From positions 402,506 to 466,505 of the forward strand of contig CANMGU010000002.1 in the NCBI GenBank assembly GCA_947497455.1: a DNA stretch of 64,000 nucleotides, written 5' to 3'. Under the pieces are notes generated by a model. It was not told the DNA's origin, searched no databases, and saw only the letters and a program-made list of their open reading frames with translations. This document shows positions 32,768 through 45,817 of this stretch, in pieces. The position numbers and the translations under genes are program-made. The stretch's first letter is position 1. The number at the start of each line of letters is the position of its first letter. This stretch comes from an uncultured Sphingomonadaceae bacterium (lineage in GTDB: Bacteria; Pseudomonadota; Alphaproteobacteria; Sphingomonadales; Sphingomonadaceae).

Positions 32768-33871
32768 ATGAATCGTGCTATGACTAAAAAAATCACAATC
32801 ATTGGCGGCGGTTATGCCGGAACCATGTTGGCAAGAGAGCTGGATACGCATGCCAACATTACCCTGATCGAGCCGCGGGAAAAATGGGTGCATAATGTCG
32901 CGATGATCCGGGCGATGGCACGGCCGGAGCTACTCGATGAAATTGTCATGCCTTATGGGGGCCTGTTAAAAAGAGGCAAAATTATCCGTGGGCGCGTAGC
33001 TTCGATTGATGGTCATGATGCGATCCTGGAAGATGGAACTGTAATTTCCGGAGACATGATCATCATTGCCACAGGGTCGACCTATGCGGCTCCGTTCAAA
33101 ATGCAGGGCGATGATGAAGCAGCCTTTCTGGCCAAAGCGAAGCGGGTGATTACGCAAATTGACAAGGCCAAAAATATCGCAATCGTTGGCGCCGGTGCAG
33201 TGGGCAGTGAGCTTGCTGGCGAGCTCGCATTTGCGCGGCCAGAGAAAAATATCACCCTGATCGCGGCTGATGACAGGCTGTTTTCTGGCTATCCGGCCAA
33301 GCTCGGGCGGGCGATGCAGAGGCAATTGGGCGAGCTGGGAGTGAAACTGCGCCTGGGCGAACGCATCAACAAACTGAAACAGACAGACGCGCCGTTTGTT
33401 CCGCCCAAGAACAAGATAAAATTGTCCGATGGTTTCCCGATTGATGCCGATCTGGTGATTCCGGTCATTGGTGCAAGGCCGGTGGCGGACCTATTGCAGA
33501 AACTGGCAGATGTGACCTTTGATGATCAGGGCCGCGCAAAGGTAGACGGCTGGCTCCGGCCCACAACCAATCCCGATCTGTTTGTCGTTGGCGATATTGC
33601 CAGTACCGGTGATACGATGACGATTGTCGGGTTGACGCGTCAGGTGGGTTGGCTGAAAAAAGCCATTAAGGCACATCTGCGCGGCAAACCGATTGCGGCT
33701 ATGAAGCCTTATAAACCGTGGCCCAAGCCATTGATATTATTGCCCTTGGGACCAGATAAAGGCGCCAGCGCGCTGCCTTTTGGCGTGACCGGTCCGTTTC
33801 TAACCTCTGCGATCAAAGGCAAAAAACTGTTTATCCCGCGCTATCATCGGGAATTTGACTGGCAGCCCTAA
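32768..33871 (+). CDS. NAD(P)/FAD-dependent pyridine nucleotide-disulfide oxidoreductase family protein (NDH-2/AIF-like)
   Basis: It has two Rossmann motifs (IIGGGYAG, IVGAGAVGSELAGE) and GD(I/V)A near the C-terminus. Confidence 0.8.
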   Translation: MNRAMTKKITIIGGGYAGTMLARELDTHANITLIEPREKWVHNVAMIRAMARPELLDEIVMPYGGLLKRGKIIRGRVASIDGHDAILEDGTVISGDMIIIATGSTYAAPFKMQGDDEAAFLAKAKRVITQIDKAKNIAIVGAGAVGSELAGELAFARPEKNITLIAADDRLFSGYPAKLGRAMQRQLGELGVKLRLGERINKLKQTDAPFVPPKNKIKLSDGFPIDADLVIPVIGARPVADLLQKLADVTFDDQGRAKVDGWLRPTTNPDLFVVGDIASTGDTMTIVGLTRQVGWLKKAIKAHLRGKPIAAMKPYKPWPKPLILLPLGPDKGASALPFGVTGPFLTSAIKGKKLFIPRYHREFDWQP

Positions 33872-35508
33872 GCGGCGACCAGGTCGAGCATTTCCAGTGC
33901 GAGATTTTTGGCGTCCTTGTAGCCGGGCTTGCCATTGGCCGCCCGCGGAACATCATCAACCACCAGAAAAGCACGCGGCGTTTTATAGTCGGCGAGTATG
34001 CCATGAACATGATCATAAAGGGCCGACTCGTCCAGTCCATGGCCTTTGGCCAGAGACAGAACCGCAGTTACTTTCTCACCAAAGCGATCATCGGGAACAC
34101 CGACGACCAGACAGTCATAGATACTGTCATGAGTTTTGAGCGCTTCTTCGACCTCTTCGGGGAAAATCTTCTCACCACCGCTATTGATGCAAACCGAGCC
34201 GCGGCCGAGCAGGGTGACACTGCCGTCGGCTTCAACCATCGCGAAATCGCCAGGAATGGAATAGCGCACGCCGTCAAAGGTCTTGAACGTCTCGGCGCTC
34301 TTTTTCTCATCCTTATAATAGCCGATCGGAACCATCCCGCCATTGCAGATCATACCAATTTCGCCGGAACCCGGTTGAATCTCTTTTCCGTCTTCGGTCA
34401 GGATCTTGGTCGTGTCGGCCATGTCAAAGCTTGCGGTTTTGACGATTTGGCTGTTCTCGCGGGTCATGACCGATGCACCCATGCTACCTTCGGTGGATCC
34501 CATGCTATCGACAATCACCATCTCGATATGGTCGAGCAGGCCTTGCTTGACCTCCGACGACCACATCACGCCGGATGATCCCATCATTTGGACCGACGAT
34601 AAATCATAGGGCTTGCCGGCTTCCTTTGCTTCATTGAGAGCGGCCAGCATCGGCTTTGCAAACACGTCGCCGACAATGGTCAGGTCGGTCACTTTTTCTT
34701 CATCGGCCAGTTTCCAAAGCGCATGCGGATCAAAATGCCGGTTGTTGAACAGAATGACGCAGCCGCCCAGCGCGTGTGGAACCATCGCACCAATCCACAT
34801 GCCGGTGCCGTGCATGATCGGGCAGGCGGGGATCGCCCGGCTGGTGGCGCCCGCCGCATGAAGCGCCTGAACCAACGGACCAAATCCCTCAGCGCCTTCG
34901 GGCAGGGCCATTTCCCGCATCTCAAAGCCCTTGGTGAACAAGGCGCTGGAAAATGTCTGATGATCATACATCACGCCTTTCGGCATGCCAGTGGTTCCGC
35001 CTGTATAAAGCATGTAGAGATCCTCGCCGGAGCGCGGGATGATCGGCATCGGATCAGCAGCGTTCAATGCGGTCTCATAATCGACGGCGCCGTCGAGATG
35101 TTCTCCAGAGCCATCATCAATTTCCAGGAAGAGCTTCACATGTTCCAGCTGATCTTTGATGGCCGCGACACGCGGGGCGAATTGGGCGTGATAGACCATA
35201 GCTTCGCTATCGCTATTGTTGATGACATGAGTCAGCTCCGCTTCGAGATAGCGGTAGTTGACATTGACCGGACAGATGCGCGCTTTGAACGCGGCAAATT
35301 GTGCCTCCATATATTCTGCGCAGTTATAGGCATAGATAGAGAGCTTCGCGCCGGGTTTGAGACCGTGATCGGTATAGACCTGTGCGAGCTTTGCCGCGCG
35401 CTGTTCATATTCGGCCCAGCTATAGCGCTTGTCGCCTTCTACAATTGCAGGTTTATCAGGAATCGCCTGGGCAATATTCTCCCAGATATCAGCCATTTGC
35501 CAGCTCAT
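33868..35508 (-). CDS. Acyl-CoA synthetase (AMP-forming, ANL superfamily)
   Basis: It has the AMP-binding signature YTGGTTGMPKGV and the C-terminal lysine region (..NGKPGYK). Confidence 0.9.
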   Translation of the reverse strand: MSWQMADIWENIAQAIPDKPAIVEGDKRYSWAEYEQRAAKLAQVYTDHGLKPGAKLSIYAYNCAEYMEAQFAAFKARICPVNVNYRYLEAELTHVINNSDSEAMVYHAQFAPRVAAIKDQLEHVKLFLEIDDGSGEHLDGAVDYETALNAADPMPIIPRSGEDLYMLYTGGTTGMPKGVMYDHQTFSSALFTKGFEMREMALPEGAEGFGPLVQALHAAGATSRAIPACPIMHGTGMWIGAMVPHALGGCVILFNNRHFDPHALWKLADEEKVTDLTIVGDVFAKPMLAALNEAKEAGKPYDLSSVQMMGSSGVMWSSEVKQGLLDHIEMVIVDSMGSTEGSMGASVMTRENSQIVKTASFDMADTTKILTEDGKEIQPGSGEIGMICNGGMVPIGYYKDEKKSAETFKTFDGVRYSIPGDFAMVEADGSVTLLGRGSVCINSGGEKIFPEEVEEALKTHDSIYDCLVVGVPDDRFGEKVTAVLSLAKGHGLDESALYDHVHGILADYKTPRAFLVVDDVPRAANGKPGYKDAKNLALEMLDLVAA

Positions 35509-35591
35509 CGAATCTCTCCTTTTCTTTTGAACATAACCAGAAAAAGGCCCAATTCAATAGCGGGCACAATAGATAGACCCAATAGATTCAT

Positions 35592-45017: not shown

Positions 45018-45085
45018 ATCGAGTCTCCTATGGTTATTTGAATAGCATTCGGCATTTTCGAGTCAAGCTCAATAAGGAACAGGTT

Positions 45086-45817
45086 TTGGCCACCAAAGCA
45101 GTCAATCCGGAGACACAGCGTGCCAAGCTGGAGCGCAAGGAGCGCGCTATTCTGGAAGCCGCGCGTGGCGTCTTTGTTGAGCATGGCTTTGATGGCGCAC
45201 GCATGTCCGAAATTGCCCGCCGCGCCAGCATCGGCGAAGGCACGATTTACAGCTATTATGAATCCAAAGCGGAATTGATGCTGACGGTGCTGCAGCAATT
45301 CTGGGATGGCCTGACATTGGAGGCGGAAGCTGTCATGGCGTCTAGCCAAGTGGATGGATTTTTTGAACGATTACAGGCACTTGCCCAATATCATCTGAGT
45401 ACGGTGATCGAGAATGCGGACTTTATCAACCTGACCTTTGCCCTGCGCCGCAACAATAGCGAAGTCAGCGTGTCACGGGATCATTTGCGCCATTATGTTG
45501 CGGTGTTTGATCAGCTGTTTCGGCGCGGACAGGATCGCGGGGAACTTCGGCGCGACGCTGTGCTCTGGCAGGCGCGTGATATATTTTACGGCACGCTGGA
45601 ATATAGCGCGCGGTCGATTGAAATGACGATGGATACAGACCGCACGGAGCGGCAGCAGGGACCGGTTGTGGATGAGATGATATCTCTGTTCCGCAGCCAT
45701 TATGCGGCGGCACATGATGCGGTTGAAACCGACAGGGCGACGCTGGATAGCCTGTCGTCGAAACTGGATCAGCTTTCCGAACAATTTGACGCGCTTTCCA
45801 GACGGCTACCCCAATAA
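45086..45817 (+). CDS. TetR-family transcriptional regulator (AtuR-like), divergent from the atuA operon
   Basis: It has a TetR HTH (ILEAARGVFVEHGFDGARMSEIARRASIGEGTIYSYYESK). I propose a TTG start at 45086 preceded by AAGGA; the 45011 ORF start would overlap atuA. Confidence 0.8.
   Translation: MATKAVNPETQRAKLERKERAILEAARGVFVEHGFDGARMSEIARRASIGEGTIYSYYESKAELMLTVLQQFWDGLTLEAEAVMASSQVDGFFERLQALAQYHLSTVIENADFINLTFALRRNNSEVSVSRDHLRHYVAVFDQLFRRGQDRGELRRDAVLWQARDIFYGTLEYSARSIEMTMDTDRTERQQGPVVDEMISLFRSHYAAAHDAVETDRATLDSLSSKLDQLSEQFDALSRRLPQ

Follow-up and report, generated by a model that had tools for sequence, protein, structure and literature searches.

The window, a 64,000-nucleotide stretch of DNA from an uncultured marine Sphingomonadaceae bacterium, contains an operon that starts like the atu operon of Pseudomonas and ends differently. 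This raises the question of which acyl-CoA it serves, and what AtuA and the genes of the tail contribute. The eight-gene minus-strand operon and its divergent TetR gene are real; the features are listed below. The order is AtuA, carboxyltransferase (CT), hydratase, biotin carboxylase-BCCP, FabK/NMO-like protein, family III CoA-transferase, TIGR03084 protein and acyl-CoA synthetase. The open reading frames and families agree with the original prediction, and so does the tight packing, with junctions of -4, -4, +10, -1, +19, +13 and +83 nt counted from AtuA. The predicted number of nine genes is correct only if TetR is counted, since eight genes lie on the minus strand. No open reading frame fits the intergenic gaps of the operon and none of these gaps contains a terminator-like site, with promoter and terminator scans being at chance level overall. 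The 83-nt gap provides an AGGAG ribosome binding site for the ligase.

Features of the carboxylase operon and its surroundings (window positions)
Feature	Position	Strand	Basis
AMP-forming acyl-CoA synthetase	33868..35508	-	PRK07798 640 bits, cut-off 543
TIGR03084 DinB/MDMPI-like protein (MDMPI_N)	35592..36407	-	TIGR03084 281 bits, cut-off 248
Family III CoA-transferase (CaiB/BaiF)	36421..37578	-	PF02515 341 bits
NMO-family FMN protein, FabK-like	37598..38740	-	PF03060 149 bits
Biotin carboxylase-BCCP (alpha)	38740..40752	-	Biotin_carb_N, CPSase_L_D2, Biotin_carb_C, Biotin_lipoyl
AtuE-like enoyl-CoA hydratase (putative 3-alkylglutaconyl-CoA hydratase)	40763..41575	-	best PDB match 4zu2
Carboxyltransferase (beta), geranyl-CoA carboxylase type	41572..43200	-	553 bits to GCC beta 5ikl_B
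AtuA	43197..45017	-	PF07287 465 bits, PF23544 91 bits
Divergent promoter/operator region atuA-tetR, 68 bp	45018..45085		read from sequence
TetR-family repressor, divergent from operon	45086..45817	+	PF00440, TetR_C_4
Terminator, hairpin and T-run between fadB end and tetR end	45831..45856		11-bp stem, 6 GC pairs, then TTTTTTTATT
Associated beta-oxidation unit	45877..50669	-	Pfam and NCBIfam assignments
FadJ/FadB-type bifunctional enzyme of this unit	45877-48066	-	
Thiolase of this unit	48121-49335	-	
ACAD of this unit	49509-50669	-	

The TetR protein is probably acyl-CoA-responsive, to judge from a C-terminal domain resembling that of Bacillus FadR/YsiA; its best NCBIfam match is FadR (75 bits, below the cut-off). 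Translation most likely starts at TTG 45086 and not at 45011, which gives 243 residues with AAGGA in front. The region between atuA and tetR has no clear palindrome. On the other side of tetR, the strong hairpin and T-run part the gene from the FadB-thiolase-ACAD unit upstream. In all three Parasphingorhabdus architectures the position of TetR is unchanged and synteny links the ACAD-thiolase-FadB unit to the carboxylase operon. Furthermore, a similar trio is divergent from AtuA at one Ruegeria locus.

Compared to atuR and atuABCDEFGH of P. aeruginosa and P. citronellolis, the locus shares the divergent TetR regulator, the leading AtuA followed by a geranyl-CoA carboxylase (GCC)-type CT, an AtuE-like hydratase and a biotin carboxylase-BCCP, and the predicted chemistry of 3-methyl carboxylation, hydration and acetate release. 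The assignment of the first four genes to atuA/C/E/F is confirmed by the best matches of CT (GCC beta 5ikl_B, together with the GCC determinant) and of the hydratase (AtuE 4zu2). Identities to the Pseudomonas proteins are 44–49% for AtuA and about 47% for CT (tblastn). In contrast, the operon lacks the short-chain dehydrogenases atuB/atuG, and it has no atuD ACAD between CT and hydratase, whereas the loci of Pseudomonas, Marinobacter and Hydrocarboniphaga all read AtuA-CT-ACAD-ECH-BC. That atuB, atuG and atuD are missing had been predicted and is true of the operon itself, but an ACAD lies 4.5 kb away in the syntenic beta-oxidation unit. The FabK-like NMO, the family III CoA-transferase and TIGR03084 were found in none of the canonical loci fetched. 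The ligase, in contrast, had wrongly been counted among the non-canonical genes, because it corresponds in function to atuH of Pseudomonas.

The CT aligns over its full length with the beta chain of the GCC holoenzyme (PDB 5ikl; Jurado et al. 2015, PMC4673880) at 553 bits, as against 408 bits for the methylcrotonyl-CoA carboxylase (MCC) chain 3u9r_B, 424 bits for 9tps_A, deposited as 'Propionyl CoA carboxylase beta subunit', and 166–179 bits for typical propionyl-CoA carboxylase (PCC) beta chains such as 3n6r_B and 6ybq_A. An affiliation with MCC or PCC, which would have spoken against the predicted pathway, is thus not what the sequence suggests. By the published criteria for the two types (PMC4673880), Gly166 occupies the position of GCC Gly162 and MCC Phe191, and the CT lacks the insertion of three residues that MCC has. 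The assignment to the GCC type is therefore well supported at the level of sequence. The N-terminal stretch aligns with 5ikl from residue 4, and translation probably begins at an ATG two codons further in, which yields 540 residues. The alpha subunit likewise has BC, BT-like and BCCP parts and carries the biotin motif AMKM at K626. A difference lies in the pocket-lining motif, which is ELWAHGG here and EIFVEGA in Pseudomonas. The specificity Gly is kept in every AtuA-linked CT examined; the CTs of the type found in the window form a subgroup of 62–97% identity, next to a separate 'EGFxxGG' subgroup at 56–61%. The hydratase is matched best by 4zu2, 'isohexenylglutaconyl-CoA hydratase' (204 bits), and reaches 165 bits with NCBIfam PRK05674, gamma-carboxygeranoyl-CoA hydratase, which is below the cut-off.

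The operon might instead be mainly a leucine/isovalerate pathway, with the carboxylase acting on 3-methylcrotonyl-CoA, the hydratase on methylglutaconyl-CoA, and HMG-CoA being split by AtuA or by lyases encoded elsewhere; an isoprenoid role would then be over-interpreted. We consider this unlikely, albeit with several observations in its favour. The CT is the sole MCC/GCC-lineage enzyme of the genome, the next best being a PCC beta chain at 27% identity, and two congeners likewise have only one. Unlike Pseudomonas, the genome has yielded no separate Liu (MCC) system, and it contains two HMG-CoA lyase genes elsewhere, on contig C1. The GCC of Pseudomonas reportedly takes 3-methylcrotonyl-CoA, too. 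Since no other enzyme of this lineage is present, the carboxylase probably also handles 3-methylcrotonyl-CoA here. However, the CT has Gly instead of Phe at the specificity position and no MCC insertion, and the operon shows linkage both to a PRK07798-type acyl-CoA synthetase and to a FadJ/thiolase unit. Moreover, three alphaproteobacterial genomes with orthologous clusters possess a separate MCC-type CT (41–43% identity), so the cluster is not the MCC there. The two roles are compatible with each other, and a pathway for branched, isoprenoid-type acyl-CoAs, as originally proposed, is the best reading.

The role of AtuA had been described as unknown. This is out of date: the AtuA-family profile matches PDB 9erq/9evf, named 'AtuA family protein | citramalate lyase subunit A'. 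The AF2 model of AtuA (pLDDT 93) superimposes on 9evf_A (Foldseek E 1e-21; VIA Z 30.1, 423 residues, rmsd 3.8). Its C-terminal domain matches 9evf_B, such that the core and the ferredoxin-like domain, which corresponds to the small B subunit, are fused in one chain. The motif residues GR..D, ILEC and YE..DP are common to both in the profile alignment. Cml of Raoultella planticola (cmlAB) converts citramalate directly to pyruvate and acetate (bioRxiv 10.64898/2026.01.16.699985), and the proposed reaction type is the same: a tertiary beta-hydroxy acid releases acetate and leaves a ketone. The textbook pathway requires cis-geranyl-CoA and an acetate-releasing lyase, EC 4.1.3.26 (PMC4097962). Given the match of the model to the solved CmlA, and by analogy of the chemistry, AtuA is probably the acetate-releasing 3-hydroxy-3-alkylglutaryl-CoA lyase of the pathway. 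Nevertheless, a common fold is no proof of a common reaction. AtuA and CmlA are only 18–19% identical; CmlAB consists of two subunits, acts on free citramalate and belongs to the methylaspartate pathway, whereas AtuA is encoded in a carboxylase operon and would presumably act on a CoA thioester that bears a long alkyl chain. ADP is present in 9evf. Two further points count against AtuA as the lyase, namely the assignment of HIHG-CoA lyase activity to LiuE in P. aeruginosa (PMC4097962) and the two HMG-CoA lyase genes.

The TIGR03084 protein gave no match in a sequence search of the PDB. In fold comparisons of its AF2 model (pLDDT 96), the best full-length match is the mycothiol-dependent maleylpyruvate isomerase 2nsf, a cis-trans isomerase (TM 0.52–0.58), in which, too, a DinB-type four-helix bundle precedes a second domain. 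Residues H43/H45, E142 and H146 are invariant across 45 homologues; the His...Glu-x3-His set, which we regard as metal-binding in the isomerase, is in place. For His52 of the isomerase, the H52A mutant entry 2nsg bears this out. In contrast to these similarities, sequence identity is 13–14%, and the C-terminal part of TIGR03084 matches SCP2 lipid-binding folds. Cys252 is invariant and Cys222 nearly so; we know of no counterpart of either in maleylpyruvate isomerase. To our knowledge, mycothiol is absent from Proteobacteria.

The order AtuA, CT, ECH, BC, (NMO), TIGR03084 recurs in Hyphomonadaceae, Kordiimonas, Hellea, Robiginitomaculum, Ruegeria, Phaeobacter, Parvibaculales and Rhizobiaceae. 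Conservation in marine alphaproteobacteria was thus found for this part of the arrangement, whereas the CoA-transferase and the ligase were seen at the operon position in Parasphingorhabdus only. AtuA occurs in 35 of 45 TIGR03084-positive alphaproteobacterial genomes, compared to 108 of 401 overall; ten positive genomes lack it, and some TIGR03084 genes are solitary or accompanied by CT-BC only. No TIGR03084 gene lies within the 10-kb flanks of the canonical clusters of Pseudomonas, Marinobacter and Hydrocarboniphaga and it is therefore not linked to the cluster there. Parasphingorhabdus genomes have essentially one TIGR03084 gene each (one adds a truncated match). In about half of them, the operon lacks both AtuA and TIGR03084 and the pair is kept side by side elsewhere in the genome; in the others, both are inside the operon. 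Gain or loss of the two genes took place at two separate sites of one and the same operon, always jointly. AtuA and TIGR03084 move together, and TIGR03084 is the genetic partner of AtuA. It appears to work with AtuA and the carboxylase in a metal-dependent manner. Our best guess, which is speculative, is a 2E-to-2Z enoyl-CoA isomerase that gives the carboxylase its cis isomer.

The NMO-like protein is closer to FabK enoyl-ACP reductases (129 bits) than to nitronate monooxygenases (61 bits) in the PDB and is, by sequence, a probable enoyl-thioester reductase/dehydrogenase. The closest PDB entries of the CoA-transferase are of the formyl-CoA transferase and succinate-hydroxymethylglutarate CoA-transferase types (160–180 bits; racemases 86), and an Asp is aligned with that of the best-matching transferase. 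The predicted four-gene tail is not a single unit: several other, marine alphaproteobacterial families conserve NMO and TIGR03084 together with the carboxylase, but not CaiB and ligase at this position. It is highly improbable that all four are co-transcribed passengers unrelated to an atuA/C/E/F pathway, with NMO detoxifying nitronates, for example, or the DinB-like protein being a thiol transferase for stress: the restriction of CaiB and ligase to Parasphingorhabdus, the solitary TIGR03084 genes, the congener JC815, which lacks NMO, CaiB and ligase, and the other chemistries permitted by Pfam names are outweighed by NMO orthologues (59–69% identity) that directly precede TIGR03084 in several alphaproteobacterial families, most of them with the BC gene of a carboxylase on their other side (two loci have NMO and TIGR03084 without a carboxylase nearby), by the kinship of NMO to enoyl-thioester reductases, by the adjacency of TIGR03084 to AtuA or to a GCC-type CT, seen in about 22 of the 45 alphaproteobacterial carriers and in nearly every Parasphingorhabdus genome, by the joint gain and loss with AtuA, and by junctions of -1 to +19 nt, which argue for co-translation.

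On balance, we favour a TetR-controlled operon for the 'beta-decarboxymethylation' of 3-methyl-branched acyl-CoAs, presumably of the isoprenoid type, as a marine-proteobacterial variant of Atu. Activation of the acid would fall to the PRK07798-type ligase, to the family III CoA-transferase or to both, and an ACAD, for example that of the neighbouring unit, would desaturate it to the 3-methyl-2-enoyl-CoA. Carboxylation of the 3-methyl group by CT and BC-BCCP is the predicted step best supported, by homology and the published specificity determinant; homology also suggests that the AtuE-like hydratase adds water. AtuA would then split 3-hydroxy-3-alkylglutaryl-CoA into acetate and 3-oxoacyl-CoA, as fold homology and chemical analogy imply, and the adjacent thiolase and FadB could continue beta-oxidation. 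The FabK-like flavoenzyme would act on an enoyl-CoA double bond. Widespread but so far unstudied, this variant of the Atu pathway of Pseudomonas would take off the blocking methyl branches of terpene-like fatty acids, and the comparison of genomes points to likely roles for AtuA, as a lyase, and for its DinB-like metalloprotein companion.

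The operon is real and the original prediction was right in outline, but the gene count, the unity of the 'tail' and the view of AtuA need correcting. Eight minus-strand ORFs follow one another head to tail and the TetR gene is separate; the operon therefore comprises eight genes plus a divergent regulator and not nine genes. The junctions from gene 1 to gene 8 measure -4, -4, +10, -1, +19, +13 and +83 nt, the same overlaps and gaps as had been claimed. The gene products and all coordinates are compiled in the table.

Genes and other features of the operon, its surroundings and related loci. 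CT, carboxyltransferase; ECH, enoyl-CoA hydratase; BC, biotin carboxylase-BCCP; NMO, FabK/NMO-like flavoprotein; CaiB, family III CoA-transferase; LIG, AMP-forming acyl-CoA synthetase; ACAD, acyl-CoA dehydrogenase; C1 and C2, contigs of the window's own genome (in the row on G448, C1 is a contig of G448); L numbers, fetched loci.
Feature	Sequence	Position	Strand	Length (aa)	Remarks
Operon of eight genes	window	33868-45017	-		
AtuA	window		-	606	PF07287, 465 bits; AtuA ferredoxin-like domain
CT	window		-	542 as listed	carboxyltransferase
ECH	window		-	270	crotonase
BC	window		-	670	BC-BCCP fusion; AMKM motif at K626
NMO	window		-	380	NMO-family flavoprotein
CaiB	window		-	385	family III CoA-transferase
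TIGR03084	window		-	271	DinB/MDMPI-like; 281.4 bits (NCBIfam curated cut-off 247.95)
LIG	window		-	546	PRK07798-type; 640 bits (cut-off 543)
TetR	window	45086 (TTG, most likely start)		243	divergent; 68-bp spacer
Hairpin and T-run	window	45831-45856			strong
FadJ/FadB	window	45877-48066	-		upstream unit
Thiolase	window	48121-49335	-		upstream unit
ACAD	window	49509-50669	-		upstream unit
Pyridine-nucleotide-disulphide oxidoreductase	window	32768-33871	+		convergent with LIG
DUF3604-PPIase-HupE module	window	60411-63999			
HMG-CoA lyase gene	C1 (L163)	about 65001-67112			NF004283, 280-284 bits
HMG-CoA lyase gene	C1 (L162)	about 75516-77602			NF004283, 280-284 bits
VOC homologue (51%)	C2	1353973-1354362			
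VOC gene and stand-alone pair	L131	8839-11866			VOC protein, 126 aa
TIGR03084 of G448	C1	1291759-1292520			
Cluster with TIGR03084	L125	6316-10810			
IS240-family transposase	L002	15513-16199			Sneathiella marina

The CT (43192-43200 region) probably begins two codons after its listed TTG start; with the ATG at 43192-43194 the protein would have 540 aa, which agrees with the homologues and with the first residue of the β chain of geranyl-CoA carboxylase (GCC). The hairpin ends both the TetR gene and the ACAD-thiolase-FadJ/FadB unit on the minus strand. None of the operon's intergenic gaps showed a terminator-like site in a scan that performed at chance level overall; within the operon, promoter and terminator scans gave the same level as shuffled controls and are uninformative on internal transcription starts. 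The atuA-tetR spacer was searched for an inverted repeat, and none was found. The 3' ends of LIG and the convergent oxidoreductase gene overlap by 4 nt (33868-33871), and no terminator was detected between these genes. The organism is a Parasphingorhabdus, the name under which AtuA homologues 77-97% identical to that of the window are filed. Contigs of a relative from one DNA sequencing run cover only part of the operon; three metatranscriptome runs yielded zero reads on it and are uninformative on its transcription.

Methyl branches at C3 block β-oxidation; in Pseudomonas, a bypass by carboxylation was already known in the 1960s. As in the acyclic terpene utilisation (Atu) cluster of Pseudomonas, homologues of atuA, atuC, atuE and atuF stand in a single operon with a divergent TetR gene; the equation of the first four genes with atuA/C/E/F was borne out by Pfam and NCBIfam and by the matches to 5ikl_B and 4zu2. 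The dehydrogenases atuB/atuG and atuD are missing, as had been stated: neither an adh_short gene nor an ACAD gene occurs between 33868 and 45017. The canonical loci of Pseudomonas, Marinobacter and Hydrocarboniphaga differ from the window in their order AtuA-CT-ACAD-ECH-BC, with an ACAD between CT and ECH where the window has none. Their AtuA proteins are 44-49% identical to that of the window, and the fetched loci contain no TIGR03084 gene. LIG had been counted among the non-canonical genes, but it hardly deserves this label because it is a putative functional counterpart of atuH (PMC4097962). The ACAD of the upstream unit was considered as an orthologue of the AtuA-adjacent ACADs of other families and rejected, given an identity of only 33-36%.

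Judged from its sequence, the window carboxylase is of the GCC type. Among solved structures, the CT scored 553 bits with the GCC β chain 5ikl_B, 408 bits with the β chain of Pseudomonas 3-methylcrotonyl-CoA carboxylase (MCC), as well as 166-179 bits with typical β chains of propionyl-CoA carboxylase (PCC; e.g. 3n6r_B, 6ybq_A). Entry 9tps_A, deposited as PCC β, reached 424 bits and aligns over its full length from residue 5, like the MCC chains. According to Jurado et al. (2015; PMC4673880), Gly162 of GCC corresponds to Phe191 of MCC, MCC carries three extra residues directly ahead of this position, and an extended N-terminal helix is common to GCC and MCC but not present in PCC β. The window CT lacks the combination of Phe191 and insertion that closes the acyl pocket of MCC β: it contains Gly166 at the determinant in the alignments with both 5ikl_B and 3u9r_B, the 'pdr' insertion of MCC is not there, and the GCC alignment shows no such gap. 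Its residues 4-541 align with residues 1-536 of GCC β and include the N-terminal helix, whereas the alignment with typical PCC β chains starts only at about CT residue 22-44. The Gly is present in every AtuA-linked CT extracted (about 50 loci); an MCC-type protein from these data has Phe plus the insertion. For the ECH, the closest solved match is AtuE, the isohexenylglutaconyl-CoA hydratase (4zu2, 204 bits). A grouping with MCC or PCC, the outcome that would have spoken against the original prediction, was thus not found, given the GCC-type score, Gly166 and absent insertion of the CT and the nearness of the ECH to AtuE.

In Parasphingorhabdus this carboxylase may also, or mainly, serve leucine catabolism, because the window CT is the sole carboxyltransferase of the MCC/GCC lineage in its genome (next best: PCC β with 27% and an mmdA-like protein with 24% identity). 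The other biotin carboxylases of the genome are only of the PCC α and AccC types, two HMG-CoA lyase genes lie elsewhere, and the congeners G412 and G416 likewise have no separate CT of this lineage. In contrast, three other alphaproteobacteria with orthologous clusters possess an additional MCC-type CT (41-43% identity). Since any geranyl-type pathway passes via 3-methylcrotonyl-CoA, a role in leucine breakdown is compatible with a broader role for branched chains. Each HMG-CoA lyase gene adjoins a CaiB-like CoA-transferase gene in this genome without MCC-type CT, as read from short loci and local tblastn.

Within the genus, 24 congeners were searched for the operon at the DNA level, supplemented by fetched regions and one look-up, and a gene census covered 41 genomes. 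Three architectures were found at one common chromosomal site, downstream of ACAD-thiolase-FadB-TetR. Type I, AtuA-CT-ECH-BC-NMO-CaiB-TIGR03084-LIG, is that of the window and of G421, G406, G417, G420, G410, G414 and other genomes. Type II is the commonest (about 20 of the 41 genomes; examples are L128, L130 and L132) and reads CT-ECH-BC-NMO-CaiB-LIG, with neither AtuA nor TIGR03084. Type III, found in genome JC815 (L127), consists of AtuA-CT-ECH-BC-TIGR03084 only. The type II genomes carry AtuA and TIGR03084 as an adjacent pair elsewhere, with a small glyoxalase-fold gene in front (L129, L131, L133, L139, L140).

In the census, AtuA and TIGR03084 each occur in 38 genomes; they are directly adjacent in about 20 and both located in the operon in 12-13. 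Congeners with TIGR03084 have one full-length gene each, to which G418 adds a truncated fragment. AtuA is the first and TIGR03084 the seventh gene of the type I operon; nonetheless, the two are jointly present or jointly absent. We read this co-occurrence, and the pairing elsewhere in type II, as strong genetic evidence for a joint function of AtuA and TIGR03084; the arrangement also suggests that the two act in the carboxylase pathway and can be provided in trans. The one clear exception among the high-quality genomes is G448 (same genus, 99% complete), which contains TIGR03084 and gave no AtuA match at E <= 1e-20. The glyoxalase/VOC-fold gene overlaps the start of the stand-alone pair in L131 and also in L129, L133, L139, L140, L170 and L225, and the VOC-AtuA-TIGR03084 trio adjoins a DUF3604-PPIase-HupE module of the kind also present in the window. 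In the window's own genome the VOC gene is represented only by a 51% homologue at another place.

For the wider distribution, 401 alphaproteobacterial genomes were sampled, up to 20 kb were fetched round each of 120 AtuA matches, and the window proteins were mapped onto these regions. AtuA was found in 108 and TIGR03084 in 46 of the 401 genomes. Only AtuA proteins at least about 54% identical to that of the window are regularly linked to a carboxylase. The family divides into tiers of identity in this sample (loci L005-L124). Of the proteins with 31-53% identity, most have no carboxylase in their neighbourhood, and CaiB-like and ACAD genes are frequent neighbours; some consist of a core of about 450 aa plus a small gene of its own. 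These lower tiers may be lyases for other substrates.

The usual order is AtuA>CT>ECH>BC>(NMO)>TIGR03084, with ACAD, TetR and ligase often divergent from AtuA; it recurs in loci of Hyphomonadaceae, Aquisalinus, Parvibaculales, Kordiimonas, Hellea, Robiginitomaculum, Rhizobiaceae and Ruegeria. A Ruegeria locus (L185) resembles the window in that FadB, thiolase and ACAD lie divergent to AtuA; a Phaeobacter locus reads AtuA-CT-BC-NMO and has no TIGR03084 match. The NMO orthologues are 59-69% identical and directly precede TIGR03084. CaiB and LIG were seen at their operon position only in Parasphingorhabdus. The conservation of the tail with the carboxylase thus holds for NMO and TIGR03084, which recur in other families, but not for CaiB and LIG at this position, and the four genes do not form one unit. 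In view of these surveys across alphaproteobacterial families and of the canonical loci fetched, NMO and TIGR03084 are features that recur in a marine/alphaproteobacterial variant.

Outside the genus the link between AtuA and TIGR03084 is strong, but not absolute. AtuA is present in 35 of 45 TIGR03084-positive genomes, with both genes within 10 kb in about 19; three more genomes have TIGR03084 beside CT/BC without AtuA, and the remaining TIGR03084 genes stand alone or beside NMO. A Burkholderiaceae locus (L237) reads AtuA>TIGR03084>CT. Loci L125, L148, L151 and L154 show CT-BC-TIGR03084 or CT-TIGR03084 and no AtuA within the approximately 10 kb fetched per side; in L125 the hydratase gene is absent too. 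In Sneathiella marina, a transposase directly follows the BC of an AtuA-CT-BC cluster and occupies the position of NMO/TIGR03084 in other genomes, with an ABC transporter and a ligase upstream of the cluster. Neither this cluster type nor the structure of CmlAB, the AtuA-family citramalate lyase, was covered by any paper found in literature searches on DUF1446, AtuA with NMO, citramalate lyase with AtuA, and TIGR03084.

Since 2006, to our knowledge, no function has been assigned to AtuA. Both Pfam domains of the window protein score above cut-off (PF07287, 465 bits versus 22.8; PF23544, 91 bits versus 27). A single-sequence search of solved structures gave no match; the family profile finds 9erq/9evf, deposited as 'Acyclic terpene utilization AtuA family protein | Citramalate lyase, subunit A (cmlA)'. 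A confident AlphaFold model derived from 72 homologues (pLDDT 93, pTM 0.92) was submitted to Foldseek, and the only strong match was 9evf_A (E 1e-21), an entry entitled 'Citramalate lyase - ADP - pyruvate complex'. VIA-align superimposed the model on 9evf_A with Z 30.1 and an rmsd of 3.8 Å over 423/456 residues, the next entry reaching Z 10 over one subdomain only. Chain B of 9evf (105 residues) matches the C-terminal ferredoxin-like domain of AtuA (TMt 0.71). CmlA and the window AtuA are only 18-19% identical. Cleavage of citramalate splits a tertiary β-hydroxy acid into acetate and a ketone. A step of precisely this kind is required in the Atu pathway, from 3-hydroxy-3-isohexenylglutaryl-CoA to acetate and 7-methyl-3-oxo-oct-6-enoyl-CoA (EC 4.1.3.26; PMC4097962). 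Because of this shared fold and this demand of the pathway, AtuA is probably the acetate-releasing lyase, which would split 3-hydroxy-3-alkylglutaryl-CoA in an EC 4.1.3.26-type reaction. The role of AtuA had been called unknown; its activity stays a proposal, but the CmlAB fold now points to such a lyase. In P. aeruginosa, the lyase activity on 3-hydroxy-3-isohexenylglutaryl-CoA was assigned to LiuE (PMC4097962). A DUF1446 gene adjoining methylaspartate-pathway genes was noted in 2015 (PMC4682846).

For TIGR03084, too, a single-sequence search of solved structures found no match. The best full-length match of its model (pLDDT 96) is the mycothiol-dependent maleylpyruvate isomerase 2nsf (TM 0.52-0.58), a cis-trans isomerase; the C-terminal part also matches SCP2 lipid-carrier folds. 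Across 45 homologues, residues H43, H45, E142, H146 and C252 do not vary, and H43/H45, E142 and H146 lie in the DinB-type N-terminal domain as a candidate His/Glu/His metal site. We know of no enzyme assigned to the trans-to-cis isomerisation of geranyl-CoA. GCC takes cis-geranyl-CoA (PMC4097962), and for these two reasons our guess is that TIGR03084 might be a 2E/2Z enoyl-CoA isomerase which would provide the cis isomer for the carboxylase.

NMO scored 129 bits with FabK enoyl-ACP reductases versus 61 bits with nitronate monooxygenases, and we read it as a putative enoyl-thioester reductase or dehydrogenase. It is not FabK itself (140.6 bits versus the TIGR03151 equivalog cut-off of 453) and resembles FabK in fold and family only. 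CaiB, with 160-180 bits to formyl-CoA and succinate-hydroxymethylglutarate CoA-transferases, is by these scores of the true CoA-transferase type. An α-methylacyl-CoA racemase, attractive for pristanoyl-type substrates, was rejected (86 bits with 1x74 and others versus 160-180).

The two proposals can be joined, though we consider the combination improbable: AtuA would be a true 3-hydroxy-3-alkylglutaryl-CoA:acetate lyase and TIGR03084 a metal-dependent 2E-to-2Z 3-methyl-2-enoyl-CoA isomerase, which would employ a lipid pocket like that of SCP2 and might replace mycothiol by its own invariant cysteine. These two long-missing enzymes would then form a self-contained module with the carboxylase, used in the sea on phytol- and polyprenol-derived acids.

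The locus adds a GCC-type assignment by means of a published determinant, a family-level distribution, a link between AtuA and TIGR03084 across three architectures, and the lack of a separate MCC. Together with its relatives it documents a marine version of the pathway that is distinct and widespread, occurring in Sphingomonadales, the Roseobacter group, Hyphomonadaceae and Kordiimonas. AtuA has a fold in common with a solved acetate-releasing lyase, and TIGR03084, a predicted metalloprotein family, is tied genetically to AtuA and GCC-type carboxylases. Parasphingorhabdus offers a natural experiment, in that some species carry the pair inside the operon and others at another site, and both hypotheses are directly testable. 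If both are true, they bear on the marine turnover of chlorophyll-derived phytol and other isoprenoid lipids.
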